DNA from: Candidatus Woesearchaeota archaeon
Lineage (GTDB): Archaea; Nanobdellota; Nanobdellia; Pacearchaeales; GW2011-AR1
DNA: 64,000 nt
Direction: 5' to 3'
Assembly: GCA_964623495.1 (NCBI GenBank)
Contig: CAZUTV010000002.1
Location: 18,789-82,788 of the forward strand
Shown here: positions 18,996 through 57,995 of the stretch, piece after piece
How the letters are laid out: every line of letters begins with the position of its first letter
How positions within the stretch are numbered: position 1 is the first letter of the stretch
Made by a program: the position numbers and the translations under genes
Notes under the pieces: model-generated
Told to the model about the DNA's origin: nothing
Seen by the model: the letters and a program-made list of their open reading frames with translations, nothing else
Database searches by the model: none

Positions 18996-19907
18996 CTATC
19001 TCATTTTAAACTCCACAACATCCAAGTCTTTAAGTTGGTGTTTTAAACCAACAATCTGGCCCGGAAATTTAGATGAAGGGCCCCAGATTTTTGTTTCTTT
19101 TATTTGCTTGCTAAAACCGTGGAAGATTTTTTCAGCAATAGTTTCTATTGTGGGGTTTTTTTCTAGGATAAAAGGTCTTTGTGATTTTTCTTTTCCAGGC
19201 TCTTTAGTATAAACTCTTATTTTATTGAAGCTTTGAAAGATCTTTTCTTTGAGAATCTCGAGATTTTCTGTTTCTTGTTTTTCTAAATTAATCACGACAA
19301 AGTTGTATTTCTTGGATTTAAGGGTTGATTCGATTTTTCTTCTGTCTTTTTCTTGGTCTTCTGTTATGTTTAGGACAATTATTCTTGGCTTGCTTGGGAG
19401 CCGTTTTTCAATTTCTTTTAAATGATTTATTGCTTTAACTAGGATGATAAGTGTGTCTGAGGTGTAAACCGTGCTTTTGTCAAAATATTCTGACTCTATG
19501 GCTGGAATTTCAATTATCTGGATTTGGGTTCCAGTATAGTGCATCATTCCTATTATTGGAAATTTAGTTACAAAAGAGTAAGGGGCTATCTCTGGGTGAG
19601 TGTTTGTAAGCAGGGAAAGAAGCGTTGACTTTCCTGAGTTTGTGAAACCGACAATAACTGCCTGCATCTCTTCTTTTTTAACCCCTGGCTTCTTGGATCC
19701 TTTGGCTGTCTTTTTTACACTTTCTATTTTTTCTTTTAATTTTATATACCTTGTTTTTAGATTAGCAAGCATTTTTTCAGAACTTTTGTGCTTGGGGCAT
19801 TCTCTAATCATTTCTTCGAGATACTTCAATTTTTCCTCATTTGTTTTGGCCTGCAAAAATTTCAGCTCTGCCTGCTTGTAAAATGGGGATTGGTTTGTCG
19901 ATGCCAT
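18996..19907 (-). CDS. P-loop GTPase, Obg/DRG-like (divergent G3/G4 motifs)
   Basis: 303 aa. G1 is GFTNSGKST, the G2 region is PYSFVTKFP, G3 is EIPA instead of DxxG, and G4 is weak. There is a K-rich helical N-terminal extension. Confidence 0.5.
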   Translation of the reverse strand: MASTNQSPFYKQAELKFLQAKTNEEKLKYLEEMIRECPKHKSSEKMLANLKTRYIKLKEKIESVKKTAKGSKKPGVKKEEMQAVIVGFTNSGKSTLLSLLTNTHPEIAPYSFVTKFPIIGMMHYTGTQIQIIEIPAIESEYFDKSTVYTSDTLIILVKAINHLKEIEKRLPSKPRIIVLNITEDQEKDRRKIESTLKSKKYNFVVINLEKQETENLEILKEKIFQSFNKIRVYTKEPGKEKSQRPFILEKNPTIETIAEKIFHGFSKQIKETKIWGPSSKFPGQIVGLKHQLKDLDVVEFKMR

Positions 19908-19908
19908 A

Positions 19909-20808
19909 TTATATGAACTTGTTCAATACTTTTATATATTCTTTATTTAAGCCACCAAATCTGAAAATTATTACTTTATTGAAACCCATACTTTTACAGA
20001 AGCTTAAATCTCTTTCAAGATTTGCTGGGGATAGTATTTTTTCATTTCCTTTTATTCCTGTATCAATAGTTCCCAAACCAACAGCATAGCTTTCCTTATT
20101 CTTCAGTATTGCTAGATTTTTCTTTGTTCTTTTGACTAACCATTTAGGCATCATACTTGTGTAAAACATTGGATTTTTTTCATAGGCAATATTGTAAGAT
20201 AATCCTAGAAGTTCCATAATTTTAAAAGAGGGTATTGAGACTTGCATAGGGACAGTTATTCTGTTCTTGTTTTCTTCAAGAAATTTCTTTATGGGTTTTT
20301 TGTTTTTTCTGAATGAAAAAAGGTTTTTTAGAATCATTGATTTTTTTAAAGGGATTTCCATGTCAATTAACAAAGGATTTTTTATTTGACCTAATATTTT
20401 AAAGGATTCAATCAGGTTTTTGGTATTAGAAAAAGGGCTAATGTAATATGAATCTTTTATTATTGGCCAATAGGCTACTACACAATTCTTTTTTATTTTT
20501 CCAACCAACACCCTTGTTTTTCTAAAATCTTTTATTGATTTTGCTGCTATGAAAAGTTTTGTTGGGAAACTTATTAGTTTTAGTTTTTCTAGGTTATTTT
20601 TAGTGGGGAATTCTTCGTAAAATTCTATTTGCATATACCTTTTAAACATATTAAACTTAAAAAGATAATGGAACGAGATGAGCTTATTGCCAAAATCATG
20701 GAGAAAAAGGAATTTAGCCAACTTCCTTTGAAAGATGTTGAGCTGGCTTTGGAGAAGTTTGACAAGCCAAGAAATGCAGATTATCAAAAAATAAAGCCGA
20801 CAAGACAA
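19909..20808 (-). CDS. Hypothetical protein
   Basis: 299-aa ORF. Its 5' end overlaps the divergent methyltransferase gene, so the true start may be an internal Met at about 20649 or 20634. No motif recognised. Confidence 0.4.
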   Translation of the reverse strand: MSCRLYFLIICISWLVKLLQSQLNIFQRKLAKFLFLHDFGNKLISFHYLFKFNMFKRYMQIEFYEEFPTKNNLEKLKLISFPTKLFIAAKSIKDFRKTRVLVGKIKKNCVVAYWPIIKDSYYISPFSNTKNLIESFKILGQIKNPLLIDMEIPLKKSMILKNLFSFRKNKKPIKKFLEENKNRITVPMQVSIPSFKIMELLGLSYNIAYEKNPMFYTSMMPKWLVKRTKKNLAILKNKESYAVGLGTIDTGIKGNEKILSPANLERDLSFCKSMGFNKVIIFRFGGLNKEYIKVLNKFI

Positions 20809-21483
20809 TTTTTAAGGAAGATTTTTTCTGGATTTTCTTCTAGAAAGGTTTTACATAAAAGAGATGAGAGCGTAGAATGGTTTTTAATGAAACATAAGTC
20901 AACTAAAGAAAGATTCCCCTATTATGAAGAAGTTTATTCAAGGTGCTTTAAGGGCTTTCCAGAAAAATTAAGCGTTATTGATTTAGGGGCAGGAATTAAT
21001 GGATTAAGCTACGGATTTTTCGAAAAGCTTGGCAAAAAAGTGGATTATATTGGAATAGAAGCAGTGGGTCAGTTTGTTGAGCTTATGAATTTTTATTTTG
21101 AAAAAGAGAAGTTAAATGGAAGATTTACGCAGGCTCAGTCTGGCTCGCCCAAGCTTGGTCAAGCCAAGGCAATTCATGAGAGTTTGTTTAATCTTGACAA
21201 AGCAAAAGAAATTATCAATGGAGCAAAAAGACCAAGAATTGTATTTTTGTTTAAAGTTGTAGACTCTTTGGAGGTGGTGAAGAGAGATTATTCTAAAGAT
21301 CTATTGCAGGAGATTGTTCCTTTAGTCGATAGGGTTGTTGTTAGTTTTGCAACGCATAGTCTTGGCGCCAGAAAAAAATTTTCTGTGCAAAGAGGTTGGA
21401 TTGTTAATTTTATCAAAGAAAGATTTAAAATCCTTGATGATTTTGAGCTCGGAGGAGAACGGTATTTGATCTTTGAGAAATGA
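20668..21483 (+). CDS. Putative 16S rRNA (guanine-N7) methyltransferase of the FmrO/ArmA/Rmt (aminoglycoside-resistance methyltransferase) family
   Basis: From the Met at 20668 (MERDELIAKIMEKK...). Blocks HKSTKERFPYYEEVYSRCF, SVIDLGAGINGLSYG (SAM motif I), RIVFLFKVVDSLEV, VVSFATHSLGARKK and WIVNFIKERFKILDDFELGGERYLIFEK align colinearly with my recollection of ArmA (HSSTNER..., ILDFGCGFNPLALY, VVFLLKMLPVL, VISFPIKSLSGKEKG, ...KILDSKVIGNELVYITSGFQK). Confidence 0.55.
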   Translation: MERDELIAKIMEKKEFSQLPLKDVELALEKFDKPRNADYQKIKPTRQFLRKIFSGFSSRKVLHKRDESVEWFLMKHKSTKERFPYYEEVYSRCFKGFPEKLSVIDLGAGINGLSYGFFEKLGKKVDYIGIEAVGQFVELMNFYFEKEKLNGRFTQAQSGSPKLGQAKAIHESLFNLDKAKEIINGAKRPRIVFLFKVVDSLEVVKRDYSKDLLQEIVPLVDRVVVSFATHSLGARKKFSVQRGWIVNFIKERFKILDDFELGGERYLIFEK

Positions 21484-22679
21484 AGCCAAAATTTTACAGA
21501 AAAATTCTAAAGAATGGCATGACTTTGGTATTTGAAAAAAGAGAGGTGCCTGTTGTCAGTGTAGCTATCGCTGTTAGGTGCGGGGGAATTAATGAGGATT
21601 TGAATGAAAAAGGAATAAGCCATTATATTGAGCACATGCTATATAAAGGAACTCCGACAAGAAATGCAAAAAAAATTGCAGAAGAAATCGAAAGGAATGG
21701 CGGAGTTTTGAACGGCTTTACTGATGAAAATATTACTGCTTACTGGTGCAAGATGCCAAGCAAGCATTTGAAGATTGCCTTAGAAGTTCTTTCAGATATG
21801 GTTAAAAATCCTTTATTTGAACAAAAAGAGCTGGATAAGGAAAGGAAAGTTATTTTTGAAGAAATAAAAATGAGAAGGGATAATCCAAGGATTTATGTGC
21901 TAGACTCGATAAAGAGCTTTTTGTATGAAGAACCGTTTTCCTCTAATTTGATAGGGACAGAGAAAACGATGAATTCCATTACTAGAGAAAAAATACTCCA
22001 AAGGTTCAAGGAAGTATATACTCCTGGTAATATGGTCTTGTGTGTTGTGGGAAATGCCGACTTTAAGGAAATTGAGAGATTTGCGGAAAAAACATTTAAG
22101 AAAACCAATGGGGGCGTGAAAAACTTTGAAATAAAGACGAGAAATCATTCTGAAGTCGAGTCTAGAAAAGGGCTTGACCAGGCTAATTTTGTTTTTGCCT
22201 ATCATGCCCCATTAACTAATGAAATGGACAATTCTGCTGCAGAGGTTTTAAATGCGATTCTTGCTCACGGAATGTCTTCAAGACTTTTTCACGAAATCAG
22301 AGAGAAGAGAAATCTTGCATATAGCGTTTCTGGTGATTCCCAAATGACCAAGGATTTTGCATATAGCTTAATTTATGTTGGAACTTCTAAGGAAAATATA
22401 GAGAAAGTCAAGGAGCTTATACTTAAGGAATTTGAAAAAGTTTCTAAAGAACTTGACGAAAAAGAGCTTAGCGAGGTTAAGGAGCAGTTAATAGGCAACC
22501 ACCACATTTCTATGGAGGATTCCACAAACCAGATGGTCAGCCTTCTTGGGTATGAAATGAACGGAAATGCTAAAGAGTTTTATGAATATGAAAAGAGAAT
22601 TAAAGGCGTAAAGATTTCTGACGTGAAAAGACTTTCAAGGCTTGGAAGCTACAGTTTTTTTGCTTTGGTGCCAGAGTGA
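21480..22679 (+). CDS. M16-family zinc metallopeptidase (insulinase/pitrilysin-like)
   Basis: 399 aa. The inverted zinc motif HxxEH is HYIEHM, with the downstream Glu-containing region. The start overlaps the upstream stop. Confidence 0.8.
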   Translation: MKPKFYRKILKNGMTLVFEKREVPVVSVAIAVRCGGINEDLNEKGISHYIEHMLYKGTPTRNAKKIAEEIERNGGVLNGFTDENITAYWCKMPSKHLKIALEVLSDMVKNPLFEQKELDKERKVIFEEIKMRRDNPRIYVLDSIKSFLYEEPFSSNLIGTEKTMNSITREKILQRFKEVYTPGNMVLCVVGNADFKEIERFAEKTFKKTNGGVKNFEIKTRNHSEVESRKGLDQANFVFAYHAPLTNEMDNSAAEVLNAILAHGMSSRLFHEIREKRNLAYSVSGDSQMTKDFAYSLIYVGTSKENIEKVKELILKEFEKVSKELDEKELSEVKEQLIGNHHISMEDSTNQMVSLLGYEMNGNAKEFYEYEKRIKGVKISDVKRLSRLGSYSFFALVPE

Positions 22680-22730: not shown

Positions 22731-24236
22731 ATGGGAAAGAGGGTGTGGCTCTGGATTGGCGGAGCAATTTTGGTTTTATTATTCTTTGTTGCGGCTTTTA
22801 GCGATTATTCAAGTACCGGTTTTGCAATTGCGACAAACAATTCCAGCGATTTAACTCCTCCGACATTATACATTACTAGCTCTTATGTTGATTCTTACAA
22901 TGTCGTTAAGATTTATGGGGTTGCTTATGACGCTGAAAGCAAGGTTAATAATATTCAGATTGCTGGGCCAATAGAGTATACTGGGCTGCAGAGGGCTTCT
23001 TTATACTGCTATCTTAATAATTGCTCGTTCTTTTTGAACTTTAGTTTTAATCCTTCTATAGATGTTTATGGGGATACTTATCGGGTTTATGCTGGTAGCA
23101 ATGGGGGGACCGCAAGCAAAGATATTGTTTTGAAGTTTAGCGGAGAGTGTATCCCTGATCCTATTGGTGTGACCTGTGCAGGATTTGAGTGTGGCACTAG
23201 AATAAACAACTGCGGTCAAAATGTAAATTGCGGAACTTGTCCTAATGGAGAAACATGCAGTGCTGGGCAATGTGTTAGCAATCTTTATAACAGAAGTTAT
23301 TCTACAGAATTAATCTCGGCTACAGATCTTTCTGCAATGCTCAAGGTCAGAGATAACATAAATGGGATTAACAATACCGGGGAGATATCTGAAGGAAGTT
23401 CTAATTATATTTTGGGTTTGCTAATTAATGTAATGGATGCTGATGAAACCCCTACATCTGAATCTGCTAAGATAAGGTATAAGGCCCTAAATTTAAGCAC
23501 GGGCGGTTTTTTCCCCCAATTTAGTCCTTCAATTGAATTTAAGTTTGTTAACTCTATACATGGATTAGATTATGTTGTTGAGTTAGTTTCTGCTACAGAC
23601 ACTTCTGCCCTTATAAAAATAACCTCTGGTTCTGGGACCGGGGAGATGGCTAACCTTTTAGAGGGAGAGGCTAAGATTATTACCGGACTTACTGTGAGAT
23701 TAAATTCTGCTGATGAGACTACTTCTTATGGTTTTGCTAACCTGGATGTTGAAGCCTTCACTTTGGAGATTTCTTCTAATCAAGCATGCACGGATGAATG
23801 TGTCCAGGTGGGATTATTGATGTGCTATGAGGATACAGGATACTTGCAAACATGTGGCAATTACGATTCAGACAGCTGCTTGGAGTGGGGGGCTGGGACT
23901 TATTGCCCATATGGCTGCGATATCTATGGCTGCAAAAGCCAACAGTCTTTTTGTGTAGATTCTGATAAAAATGCCCAGTATCCTGATGGAAAGAACTATT
24001 ACGCTCTTGGAACAGTAACAACGCAGCTTGGAAATTTCACAGATTATTGCAATACTACTGGAACTACTTGGCTCAATGAGTATTACTGTTCTGGAAATAC
24101 TTCTGCTATCTCTGGCTATAATTGTCCTTATGGATGCAATGCAGGGGTTTGCAAGCAAGCGCCTAAGCAAATTAAAAGATGCAAGGGATTACAGTGTGTT
24201 AGCAGATTCTTTACTGATTTATTTAGATCAAACTAA
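22731..24236 (+). CDS. Secreted/surface Cys-rich protein with N-terminal signal anchor
   Basis: 501 aa. The N-terminal hydrophobic helix is VWLWIGGAILVLLFFVAAF. Cys-rich modules include TCAGFECGTRINNCGQNVNCGTCPNGETCSAGQCV and a C-terminal CxxYGC cluster. Confidence 0.55.
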   Translation: MGKRVWLWIGGAILVLLFFVAAFSDYSSTGFAIATNNSSDLTPPTLYITSSYVDSYNVVKIYGVAYDAESKVNNIQIAGPIEYTGLQRASLYCYLNNCSFFLNFSFNPSIDVYGDTYRVYAGSNGGTASKDIVLKFSGECIPDPIGVTCAGFECGTRINNCGQNVNCGTCPNGETCSAGQCVSNLYNRSYSTELISATDLSAMLKVRDNINGINNTGEISEGSSNYILGLLINVMDADETPTSESAKIRYKALNLSTGGFFPQFSPSIEFKFVNSIHGLDYVVELVSATDTSALIKITSGSGTGEMANLLEGEAKIITGLTVRLNSADETTSYGFANLDVEAFTLEISSNQACTDECVQVGLLMCYEDTGYLQTCGNYDSDSCLEWGAGTYCPYGCDIYGCKSQQSFCVDSDKNAQYPDGKNYYALGTVTTQLGNFTDYCNTTGTTWLNEYYCSGNTSAISGYNCPYGCNAGVCKQAPKQIKRCKGLQCVSRFFTDLFRSN

Positions 24237-51761: not shown

Positions 51762-54700
51762 ATGGTGGGGGCGAAAAAAAATTTAGCCTTAATTGTATTT
51801 TTGCTAGCTTTCTTCGTCTTCTTTTCTGGGATTTCTTCTTCTGCTAATTGTTGGAGTTATACTACACAGTCTACCTGCGAAACAAATTCTTGTAAATGGA
51901 AGAGCGATGCTTGGGGAAGCTGGTGTGAAGAGCTTCAATGCTGGAGCCTGAATACACAAACAGATTGTTCTAATTCAACATACCATACTTTAATTGGAAA
52001 AACTTGTTCGTGGCAGACAGGAGGAAATTCTAATTTTTGCGGACAGATAAGTTGCTGGCTGTATTCTGGAACAAACCAAAGTTATTGTGAAAGCAATCCA
52101 TCTGGTAGATCTTGTGAATGGAGCTCAAATTGCTATAATATCGGTGGAGGCAGCGGGTCTTCTGTTAGCTGTTGGAGTATCAGCGATCAATCTACTTGTG
52201 GAAATACTACTGGATGCAGATGGGGAGATTGTCATGATAAAGGGTGCTGGAGTTTCTCAAACTCCACTTTGTGTGTTAATGCAAAAAATCCATGGGATGG
52301 AAGAAATTGCACTTGGACCGGATCTTCATGTATGGAGTCTAGTTGTGGCAATAGTCAGCTTTATCCAAATCAAACTGTATGTACATCTGCATCTCATTGC
52401 AGGTGGCAAGGATCTTCAACTTCTGGTTGGTGCGAGACGAAAAATTGCTGGAATTTTGATGGAAATCAAACAGGGTGCTTAACTGCAAATTCGACTATTG
52501 GAAAATCGTGTAATTGGGATAACGGGTATTGTGATGATGTTGGTTGTTGGACTTATGATAGTAATCAAACAGCTTGTAATCAGCAGCCAGGATGCAGCTG
52601 GCAGACATCGACGAGTTCTGGGTGGTGCGAGCAAGTAAATTGCTGGATATGGGATTCAATGAAGGGAGGCAATCAAACCGCATGCACGACTCTTGACTCA
52701 AATTACGGATTAAATTGTTTATGGAGCGGAAATCCCCCAGGAAACTCAACGAGTGGCTGGTGTTATCAAGATAATTCTGGGATAAGCTGTACGAACATAA
52801 CTACAGAGAAATCCTGTTATGATACCCAGTATTGCTGGTGGCAGGCGAATGATTGGAATAATGCAAGCGCTGGAGGAACATGTTCTAACCCAAGCTGGGG
52901 CGGTGGAGGTTACAGCAATAACAGTATTGTCAATAATTGGAATCCCGGGTGTTATATCTTTGATATCAATTCTACAGATTGCAACAACATTATAGGATGC
53001 AATGCCACTTCAAGCACGGAATGCGATCCGATTAATGAAAATTCGAGCATCATCAATGTTACTGCAGAATATATCAACACAAATGGATTAAACTGCACTT
53101 TAATTAATGATTCTGATTTATGTAATGATATCCCAATTCTTTCTTCATGCTGTGTTTGGCAGAATGGAAGCTGTAGTGCTTCTTATACAACCACCTCTTG
53201 CAGAGACCAAATGAGTCAGACACCTTCTGGAGAAACTTCTTGTGATGATGCTTCAACTCAGGCGATCTGTGAACAGCTGACAGGAAATCCATGGTACTGG
53301 CCTTGTAAGTGGAATAATGTCACATCAAAATGTACGGTTAAGGCAGGAGATATCTGGGGAAATAAAACCCAGAACTTTGTAACTATAGAAAATCAGATTA
53401 CTTGTGAAGCTGTTGGTGGAAAGTGGGTGACTGAAAATTATTGTGAGGGAAATTCTTCAATACCTGCAGGGAGGTGCGAGTATAAATTTGACGAGGAAAG
53501 AAATTGCAATAAGGCCTGCTTTGCCTGTGAATATAAATCTGATGGGAGTGCACACAATTCTAGCGCTGACGCAAAAATTGCCTGTCTCAACTCTAAATTG
53601 GGCTATTGCGAATTTGAAGAATCATCTTCTGCACCAAATGGGTACGGTTATTGTAAGGCTAAAGAACAGTTTAAGGGAGGTTTTGCAGAAGACTGCAGTG
53701 CAAGTAATTGCGGGGGTTGTACCTTTATGGGGTTCGTTAACGGAACCAATGGAACTAAAACTCCTATTGATTATTGTAATGGATTTAGCAGTTCGTGCAA
53801 ATGGATCTTTGATGGAAGTTCTTCAACCAAGGGATATTGTGCGGATAAAGGAACAAAGGTTTGTGAAGATTCTTGCGATAGGTGTTACACAAGAGAAAAG
53901 TGCGTGAATGATGGAAGGACAAATATTGCAAATCAATCTGGAAGCTGTAAATGGCAAGGTACAGATGATGATGGAAGCTGCGTTGCAAATATTGGGGAAA
54001 GCGTTGAAGTTTGCTGGAATGGGGAAGATGATAATGACAATGATCTAACTGATTGTGCAGACCCCGGATGTTATAGTGATTCTTTTTGCGGTTTTGTTGG
54101 AGGAACCTGTTCTATCTGGTCAGATAAGTCAAATTGCGAGAGTAATAATTGCGAGTGGGTTAGTGATAAATGGGGAAGCTGGTGTGACTTTAAGGGGAGT
54201 CAGTGCTGGAGGTATGACAAAAATCAGAACGCGTGTCAAGGAATTACACAAGTAAATAATGAAACCATGAATATCTCTGCAGCAAGACTTTCTGGGAACC
54301 ACATAAATACTTCCTATACCTTTAGCCCGTTATATGTCGGGCTTGGTTTAATTCAATCGTCGGTTTTTGTTCTTAATGGAAGCGGAATTAATATAAATGG
54401 AAATTATAGTGTCAATTTCACCACAAATACCATTACCTTTGCAAATAACACTTTTATGTTGGGCACTGGGAATTTGATGAATATTGCTTATCAATATCTT
54501 TCAAACACCTCTCAGTACTGTGAGTGGCAGAATGGAACAGGGGTTGGTTGGTGCGAGCAGGATTGGAGTGTTGCAGAGCAGTGTATGGGTTTCCCTAATC
54601 AGACAATCTGTGAAACAACGCAGGTTAGCGGGACAAATTGTACTTGGACTGTTGATAGCTGGTGTCAAGGGCAGGGAAACAGCAGTGATTGGTGCACCAA

Positions 54701-57700
54701 TCATGGTGGTTGGTGTGATCATCCAGATTTTAAGCCAAAAAACTGCTGGCAGTATACTGGGGAATCGGCCTGTGGTATAGCAAATTGCTCTTGGAGAACA
54801 GACCAGTGGAGCCAGCCACATTGTGAGGCAAATTGGAGCAACAATTGTTGGAATTATACTGTTGCAACCTGCCCTACAAATCTTGGATGTGCGGTTAGAA
54901 GTGATTCTTGGGGAAGTTGGTGTGATAATACTATGAATCAGTGTTGGAGCAAGACCAATCAGAGTGCATGTGGTGCTGTAAGTGTTTGTAGCTGGAGAAA
55001 TACTTCTTTTGGAGGAGAGTGTCAGCCTTCTTGTTTTAATTCGACTCTTAGCAATAGTCAGTCTGCTTGCGCAGCAGTTAGTGGATGTTATTGGAAATCA
55101 GATAACGGATGGTGTGAAGAAAAGCAATCTGCCCAATGTTGGAACTCAACTCTTAGCAATAATGAAACCGCATGCGGTGCGACAACGGGGTGTAGATGGA
55201 AAAATCCTGGGTGGTGCAGTCCAGAAGAGGGATTTAATGCAGGATCCATGGCTAGTGGAGGGGGAGTTGGAGGTGCATTTGGATCAGAATGTTATAAATA
55301 TGATAACAACCAAACAGCATGTACAAATTCTTCCTTGATTGGGGTTTCTTGTGTTTGGAGTGTTGAGCCTCAGCCAGTTTGTGAGGTCGATTGGAGCAGA
55401 GATTGCTGGCAATATACCAGCGAGGCTGGAGGGTGCAACGTTACAAATGGTTGTTGGTGGAATTCTAATGCAAATCCCGGATATTGCACAAACATGATGG
55501 ATCAGTGCTGGCAAAATGCTAGCTATCAAAGTTGGAATAATGCGCAATGGCTAGGAAACTGCACTTCAAATTCGCTTTGTACAAATAGCTCGTTTGGGGG
55601 ATGCGAACCCAAATGCTTTTCCACAACAACGCAATCTGCTTGTCAACTTATTAATAGCAGCAATGTTGCTGCATGCAAATGGATTACCGGATTATGTGAT
55701 CCTTTGGGTATGAGCGAGATTTTTGATGATATGGAAGGGGGACAGCCAGTGCCTTTGGGTGGAGACATCTGTGATGGAAGTGAAACAAGCCAGGCGTCTG
55801 TTGATTTGTGCGGGTTTGGAATGAAAGACATGGGTGATGCTTACGGATTTGGCGCGTTTGTAAGAAGTTTTGTTAATTCAAGTGTCTGTAATAAATTGCA
55901 AGTAACTTCAGGAGGAGCTCCTGGTTCTCCTGGAACACAAGTTATTGGTTCAGGGAACGATACAGTTAAGTATATTGTTTATTTGGATAGCGATGGTTTA
56001 ATAACTGGAAACTGCAATTTAGATTCGAATAGTTCTGCACCCGGATATGAGTTTAAACTTGTTTATTCTTCAGAGTGGAATTCAAATACAAGCAAGGCAA
56101 CCGAAACTTTTACGGCCTATAAGTGTGATAATAATAATTGGAAGATTACAGATATAAAAATCAGCGTTTGGAAAGAGCTTATGTGTGGTGAAATTGGGGG
56201 CCCAATGATCGCAATTGACAAATCTGAGCTTTCAAAATATCCTCTTCTTTATGATTCTACCGAAGACTTAAGGGTTTTTGTCGCAACTGTAGGAAATACT
56301 GGAAGCGTAAGCTCACCTTTAGATACTGCTGGACCTGGTTGGGCAACTCCTGGAGCAATTGATTTTGAGATTGCCGGAGCATTTGAATATGGGGCAGATA
56401 GTGCTAAATTTGAAAATATATTGAAGAAAGGATTCGTGCAGTATGAAGATTGTTTTGCTGCAGGGGATGAGGATAATGATGGTGTTTCTAATTGCAATGA
56501 TTGGAACTGCCAATTTGCCCCTCAATGTGCTAATTTGGGTGTTAATGCGATAGGATATAGCGATACAAAGATGCCACAGGTTATAGGAGTTAAGATAGAA
56601 GAGTATCCAGATTCTGCTTTGATAATGTATGATACAAATAAACCCACCAACGGAACTCTTGAGTTTTACAAAGAAGACTCTACTTGCACCACTTTGAATA
56701 GTAGCGTTTATGATATTGGACTTACAAGCACTAATGTAAGGGATTATAAGCTATGGCATAGTGCCGAAATTTATTCTGCGAATTTAGGATACTCCTTAAG
56801 TGAAGATACAACTTATTACTATAGACTGAAAGTTTGCGATAATTATGGAAAGTGTGCAATAAGCAAGTGTAGCTCCTTTGTTACTTCATCGACAAGCAAA
56901 TGCGGTTTCTGTAACTTTGTTACACGAATAAAGGCAGGAAGTAGTTGGACAATCAGCTACGACGACAACCAAGATGGAACATATGAGCATGTTCAAGGGG
57001 CGGTTTGTGGAAGCAATGCAGGAATGAAGACAAATTATTCTAGTGGGAGAAGAGTCAATATAAAACTATCCAAGACAGATGGAACAACTTACTTTGAATT
57101 TGTGAACGCTTCATTAACAAAAACAGGGTTGAATGATAAAGTTAGAGCAATAAGCGATTCTGGGGACATTATTGCAAGCTCCACTTTAGTAGGATTAAGC
57201 TCTGAAACTAGGGATAAGATAATTAATAATCTTCACCCGGAGATTTGTAGAATTAAGATACCCACGTCTGGAGCTTGCACCACTCTTTACCATTGCGATG
57301 ATAATGGAGAGAATTGTGTTGATAGGACCGCAGAGTCAATTTTAATTGATTCTGCAAATTGTGTTTGGCAAATTCCTTATTGTGAATTCTCTACCTATAA
57401 GACAACCAGTTCATCTTCTTCTAGCTCTTCATCAAGTTCTAGTGGAGGGGGATCTAGCAGTGGAGGTGCAGCTGGAGGGCTGATGTATGATGTTAATGAT
57501 CAACAATTGACTAGCGGATATTCTAAGGAATTAAAAATTTACGATAAATTAAGATTTACTTTAAATCAAGTTTATCATTTTCTAGAACTTAAGTCACTGA
57601 CCGCGACAAGTGCGTCAATCCAAGTTAGCAGCACCCCCCAACAAGCAACTTTAGGGGTCGGGGAGTCCAAAAAATTTGAGTTGACAGACGATAATTTTTA

Positions 57701-57995
57701 TGACTTAAATGCCAAGCTTGATGAGATTATCCTTGTAAATGGGAGTGTCAGCAAGGCTAAATTTAATATCCAATCAATTCATGAAGAGATTTTGCAACAA
57801 CCGCAATCTCCTATTACTGGCGGGGCTGTGTCTGGAGATAATGGGGGGCAGCAAGCAGGAAGTGAAGGAGGCAAGGCAGGAGGGGAAGGAAGCAACTTAA
57901 CTTTGATAATTGTCCTGGTTCTTTTAGTGGCTGCTGGAGTGGCTGGATTTATATTCTTTAAACAGAAGAATAGATATAAGAGGTTTGGATACTAG
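51762..57995 (+). CDS. Giant (2077 aa) Cys/Trp-rich cell-surface protein with signal peptide, Ser-rich stalk and C-terminal TM anchor
   Basis: The N-terminal signal is MVGAKKNLALIVFLLAFFVFFSG. There are dozens of Cys-containing modules, including a recurring C-x-W-x(2)-D-x-WGSWC motif. A Ser/Gly run lies near residue 1890. The C-terminal TM LTLIIVLVLLVAAGVAGFIFF is followed by a basic tail KQKNRYKRFGY. Confidence 0.8.
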   Translation: MVGAKKNLALIVFLLAFFVFFSGISSSANCWSYTTQSTCETNSCKWKSDAWGSWCEELQCWSLNTQTDCSNSTYHTLIGKTCSWQTGGNSNFCGQISCWLYSGTNQSYCESNPSGRSCEWSSNCYNIGGGSGSSVSCWSISDQSTCGNTTGCRWGDCHDKGCWSFSNSTLCVNAKNPWDGRNCTWTGSSCMESSCGNSQLYPNQTVCTSASHCRWQGSSTSGWCETKNCWNFDGNQTGCLTANSTIGKSCNWDNGYCDDVGCWTYDSNQTACNQQPGCSWQTSTSSGWCEQVNCWIWDSMKGGNQTACTTLDSNYGLNCLWSGNPPGNSTSGWCYQDNSGISCTNITTEKSCYDTQYCWWQANDWNNASAGGTCSNPSWGGGGYSNNSIVNNWNPGCYIFDINSTDCNNIIGCNATSSTECDPINENSSIINVTAEYINTNGLNCTLINDSDLCNDIPILSSCCVWQNGSCSASYTTTSCRDQMSQTPSGETSCDDASTQAICEQLTGNPWYWPCKWNNVTSKCTVKAGDIWGNKTQNFVTIENQITCEAVGGKWVTENYCEGNSSIPAGRCEYKFDEERNCNKACFACEYKSDGSAHNSSADAKIACLNSKLGYCEFEESSSAPNGYGYCKAKEQFKGGFAEDCSASNCGGCTFMGFVNGTNGTKTPIDYCNGFSSSCKWIFDGSSSTKGYCADKGTKVCEDSCDRCYTREKCVNDGRTNIANQSGSCKWQGTDDDGSCVANIGESVEVCWNGEDDNDNDLTDCADPGCYSDSFCGFVGGTCSIWSDKSNCESNNCEWVSDKWGSWCDFKGSQCWRYDKNQNACQGITQVNNETMNISAARLSGNHINTSYTFSPLYVGLGLIQSSVFVLNGSGININGNYSVNFTTNTITFANNTFMLGTGNLMNIAYQYLSNTSQYCEWQNGTGVGWCEQDWSVAEQCMGFPNQTICETTQVSGTNCTWTVDSWCQGQGNSSDWCTNHGGWCDHPDFKPKNCWQYTGESACGIANCSWRTDQWSQPHCEANWSNNCWNYTVATCPTNLGCAVRSDSWGSWCDNTMNQCWSKTNQSACGAVSVCSWRNTSFGGECQPSCFNSTLSNSQSACAAVSGCYWKSDNGWCEEKQSAQCWNSTLSNNETACGATTGCRWKNPGWCSPEEGFNAGSMASGGGVGGAFGSECYKYDNNQTACTNSSLIGVSCVWSVEPQPVCEVDWSRDCWQYTSEAGGCNVTNGCWWNSNANPGYCTNMMDQCWQNASYQSWNNAQWLGNCTSNSLCTNSSFGGCEPKCFSTTTQSACQLINSSNVAACKWITGLCDPLGMSEIFDDMEGGQPVPLGGDICDGSETSQASVDLCGFGMKDMGDAYGFGAFVRSFVNSSVCNKLQVTSGGAPGSPGTQVIGSGNDTVKYIVYLDSDGLITGNCNLDSNSSAPGYEFKLVYSSEWNSNTSKATETFTAYKCDNNNWKITDIKISVWKELMCGEIGGPMIAIDKSELSKYPLLYDSTEDLRVFVATVGNTGSVSSPLDTAGPGWATPGAIDFEIAGAFEYGADSAKFENILKKGFVQYEDCFAAGDEDNDGVSNCNDWNCQFAPQCANLGVNAIGYSDTKMPQVIGVKIEEYPDSALIMYDTNKPTNGTLEFYKEDSTCTTLNSSVYDIGLTSTNVRDYKLWHSAEIYSANLGYSLSEDTTYYYRLKVCDNYGKCAISKCSSFVTSSTSKCGFCNFVTRIKAGSSWTISYDDNQDGTYEHVQGAVCGSNAGMKTNYSSGRRVNIKLSKTDGTTYFEFVNASLTKTGLNDKVRAISDSGDIIASSTLVGLSSETRDKIINNLHPEICRIKIPTSGACTTLYHCDDNGENCVDRTAESILIDSANCVWQIPYCEFSTYKTTSSSSSSSSSSSSGGGSSSGGAAGGLMYDVNDQQLTSGYSKELKIYDKLRFTLNQVYHFLELKSLTATSASIQVSSTPQQATLGVGESKKFELTDDNFYDLNAKLDEIILVNGSVSKAKFNIQSIHEEILQQPQSPITGGAVSGDNGGQQAGSEGGKAGGEGSNLTLIIVLVLLVAAGVAGFIFFKQKNRYKRFGY
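57417..57480 (+). repeat. Ser/Gly homopolymeric coding repeat inside the giant surface protein gene
   Basis: agttcatcttcttctagctcttcatcaagttctagtggagggggatctagcagtggaggtgca encodes SSSSSSSSSSSSGGGSSSGGA. Confidence 0.6.

Follow-up and report, generated by a model that had tools for sequence, protein, structure and literature searches.

All characterized methyltransferases that form 7-methylguanosine at position 1405 of 16S rRNA (m7G1405) are resistance or self-resistance factors (PMC2896518, PMC10288597). The pathogen enzymes RmtC, RmtB, RmtF and ArmA are encoded on plasmids or transposons. The self-resistance genes of antibiotic producers (Sgm and, by family, KgmB, GrmA and FmrO) lie in antibiotic biosynthesis clusters of high-GC actinomycetes. 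An archaeal branch of this Arm/FmrO family is already known and is functionally uncharacterized. Husain et al. (2010, PMC2896518) introduced its described member, NEQ545 of Nanoarchaeum equitans, as the 'first archaeal ortholog' of the Arm family. Here we analyze a methyltransferase gene of this branch, encoded on contig CAZUTV010000002.1 of a Candidatus Woesearchaeota archaeon, in a stretch of 64,000 nucleotides that we call the window.

The protein has the same two-domain fold as RmtC, RmtB, RmtF and ArmA (PDB 8GHU, 6PQB, 6CN0, 3FRH, 3B89, 6PI9, 3FZG). It has in common with them the HxSTxER motif, motif I, an acidic motif II and a C-terminal G-x-E strand. Unlike the mobile pathogen genes, the archaeal gene is chromosomal, syntenic and found throughout its lineage. 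The producer enzyme Sgm (3LCU) is matched by the archaeal family profile at E 7e-10, and the structural model superposes on it with a TM-score (TM) of 0.72. The Sgm segments LLLKTLPCLE and SFPTKSLGQR align with FLFKVVDSLE and SFATHSLGAR of the archaeal protein. Unlike the producer genes, however, the archaeal gene stands among translation and replication genes of an archaeon with a GC content of 36 %.

NEQ545 belongs to the same broad group as the window gene (DPANN/Nanoarchaeota), and we compare the two through its published description. The catalytic-domain motifs of NEQ545 are conserved, and its helical N-terminal domain is strongly diverged, shorter and lacks a helix; no function was assigned to it (PMC2896518). 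In the literature searched, NEQ545 is not mentioned after Husain et al. (2010), and a search for 'FmrO' together with 'archaea' found nothing. An earlier, model-made reading of the window (the original prediction) had implied that an archaeal member of the family is a novelty. This was overstated, given the description of NEQ545 in 2010 and the PF07091 (FmrO) annotation of many DPANN homologues. What we add is the size of the branch, the conserved order of GTPase, methyltransferase and M16 peptidase genes, evidence for vertical inheritance and purifying selection, and the invariant replacement of residues that contact helix 45 (h45) of the rRNA.

The m1A1408 methyltransferases NpmA and KamB use the same docking surface on the 30S subunit and also confer aminoglycoside resistance (PMC10288597). 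They belong to a different family from the window methyltransferase, and they appear neither in our PDB sequence and profile searches nor among the Foldseek matches listed.

Family membership

The window gene is a distant DPANN member of the Arm/FmrO 16S rRNA m7G1405 methyltransferase family. This is the assignment of the original prediction, on which the Pfam profile, the profile alignment and the structure search all agree. The protein matches PF07091 with 38 bits (E 1.6e-9), above the gathering cut-off of 27. All 23 aligned DPANN homologues match it too, with a best E of 2e-15. The sole other Pfam match of the methyltransferase is weak and below threshold, to the generic domain Methyltransf_31. 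The NCBIfam model NF000466 (Rmt, Rmt_gen) aligns from end to end, with amino acids 4-267 on model positions 1-251 of 254 (E 5.8e-20). The more specific NCBIfam models for RmtB, C, D, E and F all score 27 bits or less.

Profile searches assign the protein to no other Rossmann family; their significant matches are m7G1405 enzymes only. The same is true of the PDB sequence search with the single protein. When the PDB is searched with the profile of the 23-sequence family, the matches become stronger: RmtC reaches 2e-10, ArmA 1e-8, RmtB 6e-7 and RmtF 2e-6, next to the value for Sgm given above. The matches that follow the m7G1405 enzymes have E values of about 0.07. By bit score the top solved enzyme is RmtC, with 43 bits. 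Aligned with hhalign to an alignment of genuine RmtC, ArmA and RmtB sequences, with ArmA taken from plasmid NC_021728, the family reaches a probability of 99.1 % and an E value of 5e-19; the 244 aligned columns start at the first residue and end at the C-terminus.

Identity to RmtC, ArmA and RmtB is 22-25 %. Pairwise BLASTP with ArmA is significant for amino acids 1-114 only (27 % identity, E 2e-9). Most of this segment belongs to the N-terminal domain that is specific to the family, and motif I is only a part of it. The C-terminal similarity to ArmA is significant at the level of profile or structure only. Hence the proposal that colinear blocks match ArmA over the whole length holds for profiles and structure, and for pairwise BLASTP it holds only as far as residue 114. 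The peptides that had been quoted are real on both sides: SVIDLGAGINGLSYG stands at amino acids 102-116 and KILDDFELGGERYLIFEK at 254-271 of the window protein, and the ArmA peptides are found in the actual plasmid-encoded enzyme.

The AlphaFold2 model (predicted local distance difference test score 87.6, predicted TM-score 0.85) shows five helices at the N-terminus and, after them, a Rossmann-type domain in which strands and helices alternate. The two-domain architecture of the family, an N-terminal helical domain and a C-terminal class I domain dependent on S-adenosylmethionine (SAM), is thus present in the predicted structure. In a Foldseek search of the PDB with this model, the top 16 chains are all RmtC, Sgm, RmtB, RmtF or ArmA, matched over the full length. 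Their E values run from 7e-13 to 6e-8, and their TM-scores from 0.53 to 0.73 when normalized by the query and up to 0.81 when normalized by the target. Beyond these chains come unrelated methyltransferases, with E values of at least 1.6e-6 and TM-scores below 0.52.

Active-site and docking residues

We took residue equivalences from MAFFT, HMMER and hhalign alignments with the actual bacterial sequences. Residue roles come from the paper on the cryo-electron microscopy structure of RmtC on the 30S subunit (PMC10288597) and from the Sgm paper (PMC2896518). Positions are collected in Table 1. As judged from these alignments, the SAM-binding residues, the catalytic lysine (Lys196) and the stacking aromatic residue (Phe56) are retained; in RmtC, the counterparts of the latter two hold the flipped-out G1405 in position.

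In the HxSTxER motif, the archaeal family shows no variation at H76, S78, T79, E81 and R82, which are equivalent to H105, S107, T108, E110 and R111 of RmtC. The arginine of this motif (Arg108 in Sgm) touches the carboxypropyl group of SAM (PMC2896518, PMC10288597). D105, G107, G109 and N111 of motif I are invariant as well, and most SAM-binding residues are common to RmtC, ArmA and RmtB. The RmtC counterparts of the acidic residue of motif II and of the catalytic lysine, Asp160 and Lys204, touch the ribose of SAM and N7 of G1405, respectively (PMC10288597). RmtC keeps its activity when the stacking Tyr60 is changed to Phe (PMC10288597), the residue that the archaeal protein has at this position.

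Toward the C-terminus the segment SF(A/P)TxSLGxR is kept. Its R235 corresponds to Arg241 of RmtC, and S226-F227 are conserved in all aligned sequences. The corresponding loop of RmtC distorts helix 44 (h44) of the rRNA (PMC10288597). A gap follows the segment, and the equivalent of RmtC Met245 could be the invariant F238, S239 or V240.

The N-terminal helical domain is the counterpart of the N1/N2 domain with which RmtC docks on the 30S subunit. Its conserved basic residues are K9, K13, K14, K43, R46, R50 and K60, of which K43 is equivalent to RmtC Lys47 and R46 to RmtC Arg50. The linker equivalent to N2 is shorter than in RmtC, ArmA and RmtB, which fits the 2010 description of NEQ545 as lacking a helix.

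Table 1. Positions in the window of the methyltransferase gene, its motifs and key residues, and the genes next to it. Related loci are those of the best 80 of at least 158 GTDB species-representative genomes with a relative.
Feature	Position	Strand	Basis or occurrence
Methyltransferase coding sequence, 271 amino acids + stop	20668..21483	+	list of open reading frames; PF07091; hhalign; AlphaFold2/Foldseek
N-terminal helical domain, amino acids 1 to ~95	20668..20952	+	helices 3-11, 21-29, 38-56, 69-75, 77-93 (AlphaFold2)
Phe16 in place of RmtC Tyr21	20713-20715	+	alignments
Arg50 in place of RmtC His54	20815-20817	+	alignments
Phe56, equivalent to RmtC Tyr60 (G1405-stacking aromatic)	20833-20835	+	alignments
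HKSTKER motif, amino acids 76-82	20893..20913	+	alignments
SAM-binding motif I DLGAGING, amino acids 105-112	20980..21003	+	alignments
Glu131, acidic residue of motif II, aligned to RmtC Asp160	21058..21060	+	alignments
Lys196, aligned to the universally conserved catalytic Lys204 of RmtC	21253..21255	+	MAFFT, HMMER, hhalign
SFATHSLGARKKF, amino acids 226-238, counterpart of RmtC SFPIKTISGRDVGM (loop 237-246)	21343..21381	+	alignments
DRG/Obg-type GTPase with TGS domain	18996..19907	-	divergent, immediately upstream in 72/80 related loci
M16-family peptidase	21480..22679	+	immediately downstream, same strand, in 75/80 related loci
Open reading frame of 246 amino acids between GTPase and methyltransferase	19909..20649	-	in 2/80 related loci only

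Distribution and inheritance

The gene is conserved, chromosomal and under purifying selection, and it occurs lineage-wide in DPANN archaea in a housekeeping context. In a search of 5.8 billion proteins, 1005 are related at E <=1e-3; among the best 120, identity to the window protein is 53-79 % and length about 257 amino acids. Where the relatives carry a taxon label, it is Pacearchaeota, Nanoarchaeota or 'archaeon'. Taking all labeled relatives together, only DPANN groups are represented (Pacearchaeota, Woesearchaeota or Nanoarchaeota). In public records PF07091 is already assigned to many DPANN homologues, a few of which bear the name 'Ribosomal RNA methyltransferase (FmrO)'. The profile was also run exhaustively against 1.84 billion representatives of clusters defined at 50 % identity; 1072 clusters match at E <=1e-3, of which 518 reach E <=1e-10 and 74 reach E <=1e-30. 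Few of the distant representatives have a name, and these are Nanoarchaeota or Nanoarchaeia; most are nameless. Among GTDB species-representative genomes, a pattern-limited scan finds a relative in at least 158, and the best 80 are all labeled as DPANN lineages.

The immediate neighbors are nearly constant across the related loci (Table 1). Farther away, a Tyr/Trp-tRNA synthetase is present in 58 of the 80 loci, an arginase-family protein in 43 and an ERCC4 nuclease in 40. In the window, the neighbors include TyrRS/TrpRS, the DRG GTPase, an arginase-family protein, LigT and Hef.

The methyltransferase has also diverged together with its neighbors. Identity to the window protein is uninformative for this purpose, as most loci fall into a band of 50-60 % identity, and we used a Mantel test on all-against-all distances instead. 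Methyltransferase distances correlate with those of the GTPase (r 0.42) and of the peptidase (r 0.50), and none of 999 permutations reached either value. Pairwise distances span a similar range, 0.07-0.56 for the methyltransferase and 0.05-0.55 for the neighbors. The ratio of nonsynonymous to synonymous substitution rates (dN/dS) lies between 0.04 and 0.2 for the closer methyltransferase pairs.

The marks of a horizontally acquired or mobile gene, namely patchy spread, variable context, mobility genes and odd composition, are absent. With a GC content of 0.349, and 0.31 at third codon positions, the gene matches the neighboring genes and the window (0.363), which stays at about 36 % all along. 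No mobile element, transposase or integrase lies within about 18 kb of the methyltransferase; the nearest recombinase is at 2-628. Altogether this looks like an old inherited housekeeping gene and not like a recently acquired resistance gene. The original prediction had offered two readings, horizontal transfer or an intrinsic rRNA modification enzyme. The latter is the one we favor, while synteny, co-divergence, purifying selection, native composition and the presence in at least 158 genomes speak against recent transfer.

The stop codon of the methyltransferase and the start codon of the M16 peptidase overlap as ATGA. This overlap suggests that the two genes are probably co-transcribed. Their pairing hints at a functional connection beyond the known roles of either family.

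Two groups of relatives depart from the common pattern. In one sister sub-lineage (representatives P0140-P0176) the catalytic Lys196 is replaced by Gln or Asn, and the motif HSTER reads HSSKR. Its member P0140 (L086:5001-5756) is without a precomputed Pfam match, yet its gene lies directly upstream of an M16 peptidase gene; the peptidase linkage persists over deep divergence. To judge from sequence and position, P0140 looks like an orthologue with a remodeled active site. The other is P0233 (L084:6001-6804), which appears more 'bacterial-looking': it has His and Tyr at RmtC positions 54 and 60, and Phe at 21. Its gene lies on an 84-kb marine contig beside genes for uL1, uL10/P0 and arginine biosynthesis. 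We considered P0233 as a bridge outside DPANN and dismissed the idea: the uL10/P0 type marks the contig as archaeal, and among the 15 relatives of P0233 the three with a taxon label are Nanoarchaeia, Woesearchaeota or Nanoarchaeota.

A putative intrinsic rRNA modification enzyme

With moderate confidence, we favor the view that the gene is a vertically inherited DPANN member (Pacearchaeota; Nanoarchaeota in GTDB) of the Arm/FmrO family and encodes a methyltransferase that modifies the small-subunit rRNA intrinsically, at G1405 or close to it. The 16S surface recognized by RmtC, and G1405 itself, are conserved across domains. The archaeal enzyme would dock on the surface of h24, h27, h44 and h45 that RmtC uses. 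Its target for methylation in the small-subunit rRNA would be the equivalent of G1405, at the upper end of helix 44, and the methyl group would be an intrinsic feature of the decoding center. The invariant Phe16 and Arg50 lie exactly where Tyr21 and His54 of RmtC touch G1516 of h45, and they suggest that the archaeal ribosome calls for a different way of docking and of distorting the helix. If cells gained resistance to 4,6-disubstituted deoxystreptamine aminoglycosides, this would be no more than a by-product.

Several observations weigh against this view. Tyr21 and His54 of RmtC, two near-universal residues of the characterized enzymes, are replaced by Phe16 and Arg50. Both replacements are invariant in the 23-sequence alignment, and they prevail in a set of about 100 full-length proteins that represent clusters at 50 % identity. 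Where RmtC has Lys20, the archaeal family has an invariant glutamate (Glu15). RmtC with the Y21F change confers much less resistance, RmtC cannot do without His54, and both residues touch G1516 of h45 (PMC10288597). The score against NF000466, 71.7 bits, stays below the curated cut-off of 250 bits for Rmt equivalogs. The sub-lineage with Gln or Asn in place of the lysine indicates that catalysis of the exact reaction may not be what selection keeps across the clade; binding or some other activity may be kept instead. The host 16S rRNA with its G1405 does not lie within the window, and the universal 16S segment CCGCCCGTCA was not found in the 83 loci in which it was sought. To our knowledge, m7G has not been reported at the 1405-equivalent position of any archaeal rRNA. 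A literature search likewise returned no report of G1405 N7 methylation or aminoglycoside resistance by any archaeal member of the family. Given the two missing family-typical residues, the missed equivalog cut-off and the sub-lineage without the lysine, the main uncertainty is the exact substrate.

Alternatively, the protein might be a true member of the family whose job has changed. It could methylate another nucleotide or another RNA, or it could serve mainly as an assembly or quality-control factor of the small subunit, for which binding counts more than methyl transfer. For KsgA/Dim1, binding is known to matter more than methyl transfer. The invariant Phe16, Arg50 and Glu15 at h45-contacting positions, the shorter N2-equivalent linker, a score far under the Rmt equivalog cut-off and orthologues that lack the catalytic lysine in the same synteny all point in this direction. 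So does the tight linkage to a GTPase of a ribosome-associated type and to the M16 peptidase. However, the catalytic lysine, the stacking aromatic residue, the SAM motifs and the equivalent of Arg241 are kept here and in most of the clade, and only m7G1405 enzymes match the fold over its whole length. We regard a changed job as rather unlikely. That the gene is an aminoglycoside-resistance determinant, acquired from bacteria or kept through antibiotic-producing neighbors, seems improbable to us. All characterized members of the family do confer such resistance (PMC2896518, PMC10288597), the 2010 phylogeny placed NEQ545 closer to the pathogen than to the producer enzymes (PMC2896518), and a GNAT gene and a resolvase gene are present elsewhere in the window. 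Yet the identity to RmtC, ArmA and RmtB is low, and the gene occupies one conserved chromosomal position throughout the archaeal lineage and co-diverges with its neighbors. Its composition is native, no transposase or integrase is nearby, and the resolvase and GNAT genes are some 18 kb off, behind replication genes. Anaerobic fermentative cells, it can be argued, are also poor at taking up aminoglycosides. This argument has been made for Clostridium (PMC1904277) and for bacteria of the candidate phyla radiation (bioRxiv 10.64898/2026.07.13.738296); the 16S modification map of C. acetobutylicum has no m7G1405 (PMC1904277). A resistance role is less attractive because the gene is ancient in its lineage, its context is not accessory and uptake in anaerobic fermenters is poor. 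An ancient transfer between domains at the root of the DPANN lineage is possible.

We give almost no credence to the remaining alternative, a generic Rossmann-fold methyltransferase that resembles ArmA in motif I by chance. The restriction of the significant BLASTP match to the N-terminal 114 residues and the weak secondary match to Methyltransf_31 could be read in its favor. But that segment consists mainly of the N-terminal domain typical of the family. The profile and structure matches, moreover, cover the full length and single out the m7G1405 family alone, and the next fold matches trail by more than four orders of magnitude. The family-profile search of the PDB, Foldseek and hhalign each refute this alternative.

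Returning to an intrinsic methyltransferase, the large syntenic clade, with at least 518 clusters (50 % identity) at E <=1e-10, suggests that the family also has a role in intrinsic ribosome modification. On the same scale RmtC, at 43 bits, would rank far below those 518 clusters. If the enzyme indeed places a constitutive mark at the G1405 equivalent, archaeal rRNA would have a further, new modification, and intrinsic modification would suggest itself as the origin of ArmA/Rmt-type enzymes. More tentatively, and with less conviction than for the methyltransferase activity itself, we suggest that the DPANN clade is the housekeeping face of a resistance family. It would place a constitutive m7G (or related) mark throughout a phylum of ultra-small archaea, with docking re-tuned through Phe16 and Arg50, and would form a unit with the M16 peptidase beside the DRG GTPase. 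Resistome surveys should be cautious here: such DPANN genes should not be annotated automatically as antibiotic-resistance genes.

Gene boundaries and other features of the window

The methyltransferase reading frame lies exactly where it had been placed, from the ATG at 20668 to the end of the TGA at 21483. An in-frame TTG at 20629, upstream of this ATG, is an unlikely start because the 22 aligned homologues all start where the ATG stands. About 22-28 nucleotides 5' of the ATG lies an A/T-rich TTTTAAA, which could be the TATA box of a leaderless mRNA. A scan for sigma-70 promoters and terminators gave only chance-level matches, and this type of scan is not applicable to an archaeon. Scans of the window for tRNA genes and Rfam families returned no match.

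The window protein contains a short insertion that is seen in this genome only and is absent from all 22 aligned homologues. It is 45 nucleotides long and in frame (21121..21165, + strand; amino acids 152-166, RFTQAQSGSPKLGQA). Its GC content is 0.58, compared with 0.35 for the gene, and it is disordered in the AlphaFold2 model. It holds a perfect 10-bp palindrome, CCAAGCTTGG, that is unique within the window. The insert is either a natural micro-insertion or an artefact of assembly or cloning.

The 246-amino-acid reading frame between GTPase and methyltransferase has no Pfam match, and its start lies within about 20 nucleotides of the methyltransferase ATG. It is a lineage-specific insertion into the conserved divergent gene pair and probably stands outside the conserved unit.

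The archaeal origin of the DNA, assumed in the original prediction, is borne out by the markers encoded in the window: Cdc6/Orc1, both subunits of PolD (DP1 and DP2), RadA and a pair of a Hef-type helicase and an ERCC4 nuclease. The suggested connection to an NTase/GNAT cassette at the start of the window is not supported. The group there (2-2221, - strand, co-directional) consists of a serine resolvase (2-628), a reading frame of 167 amino acids that we could not assign, a GNAT (1128-1562) and a HAD hydrolase (1562-2221). It lies about 18 kb from the methyltransferase, past the Cdc6 and PolD genes. The group may be the end of an integrated element and is not linked to the methyltransferase.

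Two further reading frames on the + strand each begin with an N-terminal hydrophobic segment. The smaller (22731-24236, 501 amino acids) is rich in cysteine and has no Pfam match; the larger (51762-57995) encodes 2077 amino acids. From their sequences, both look like large secreted or surface proteins.

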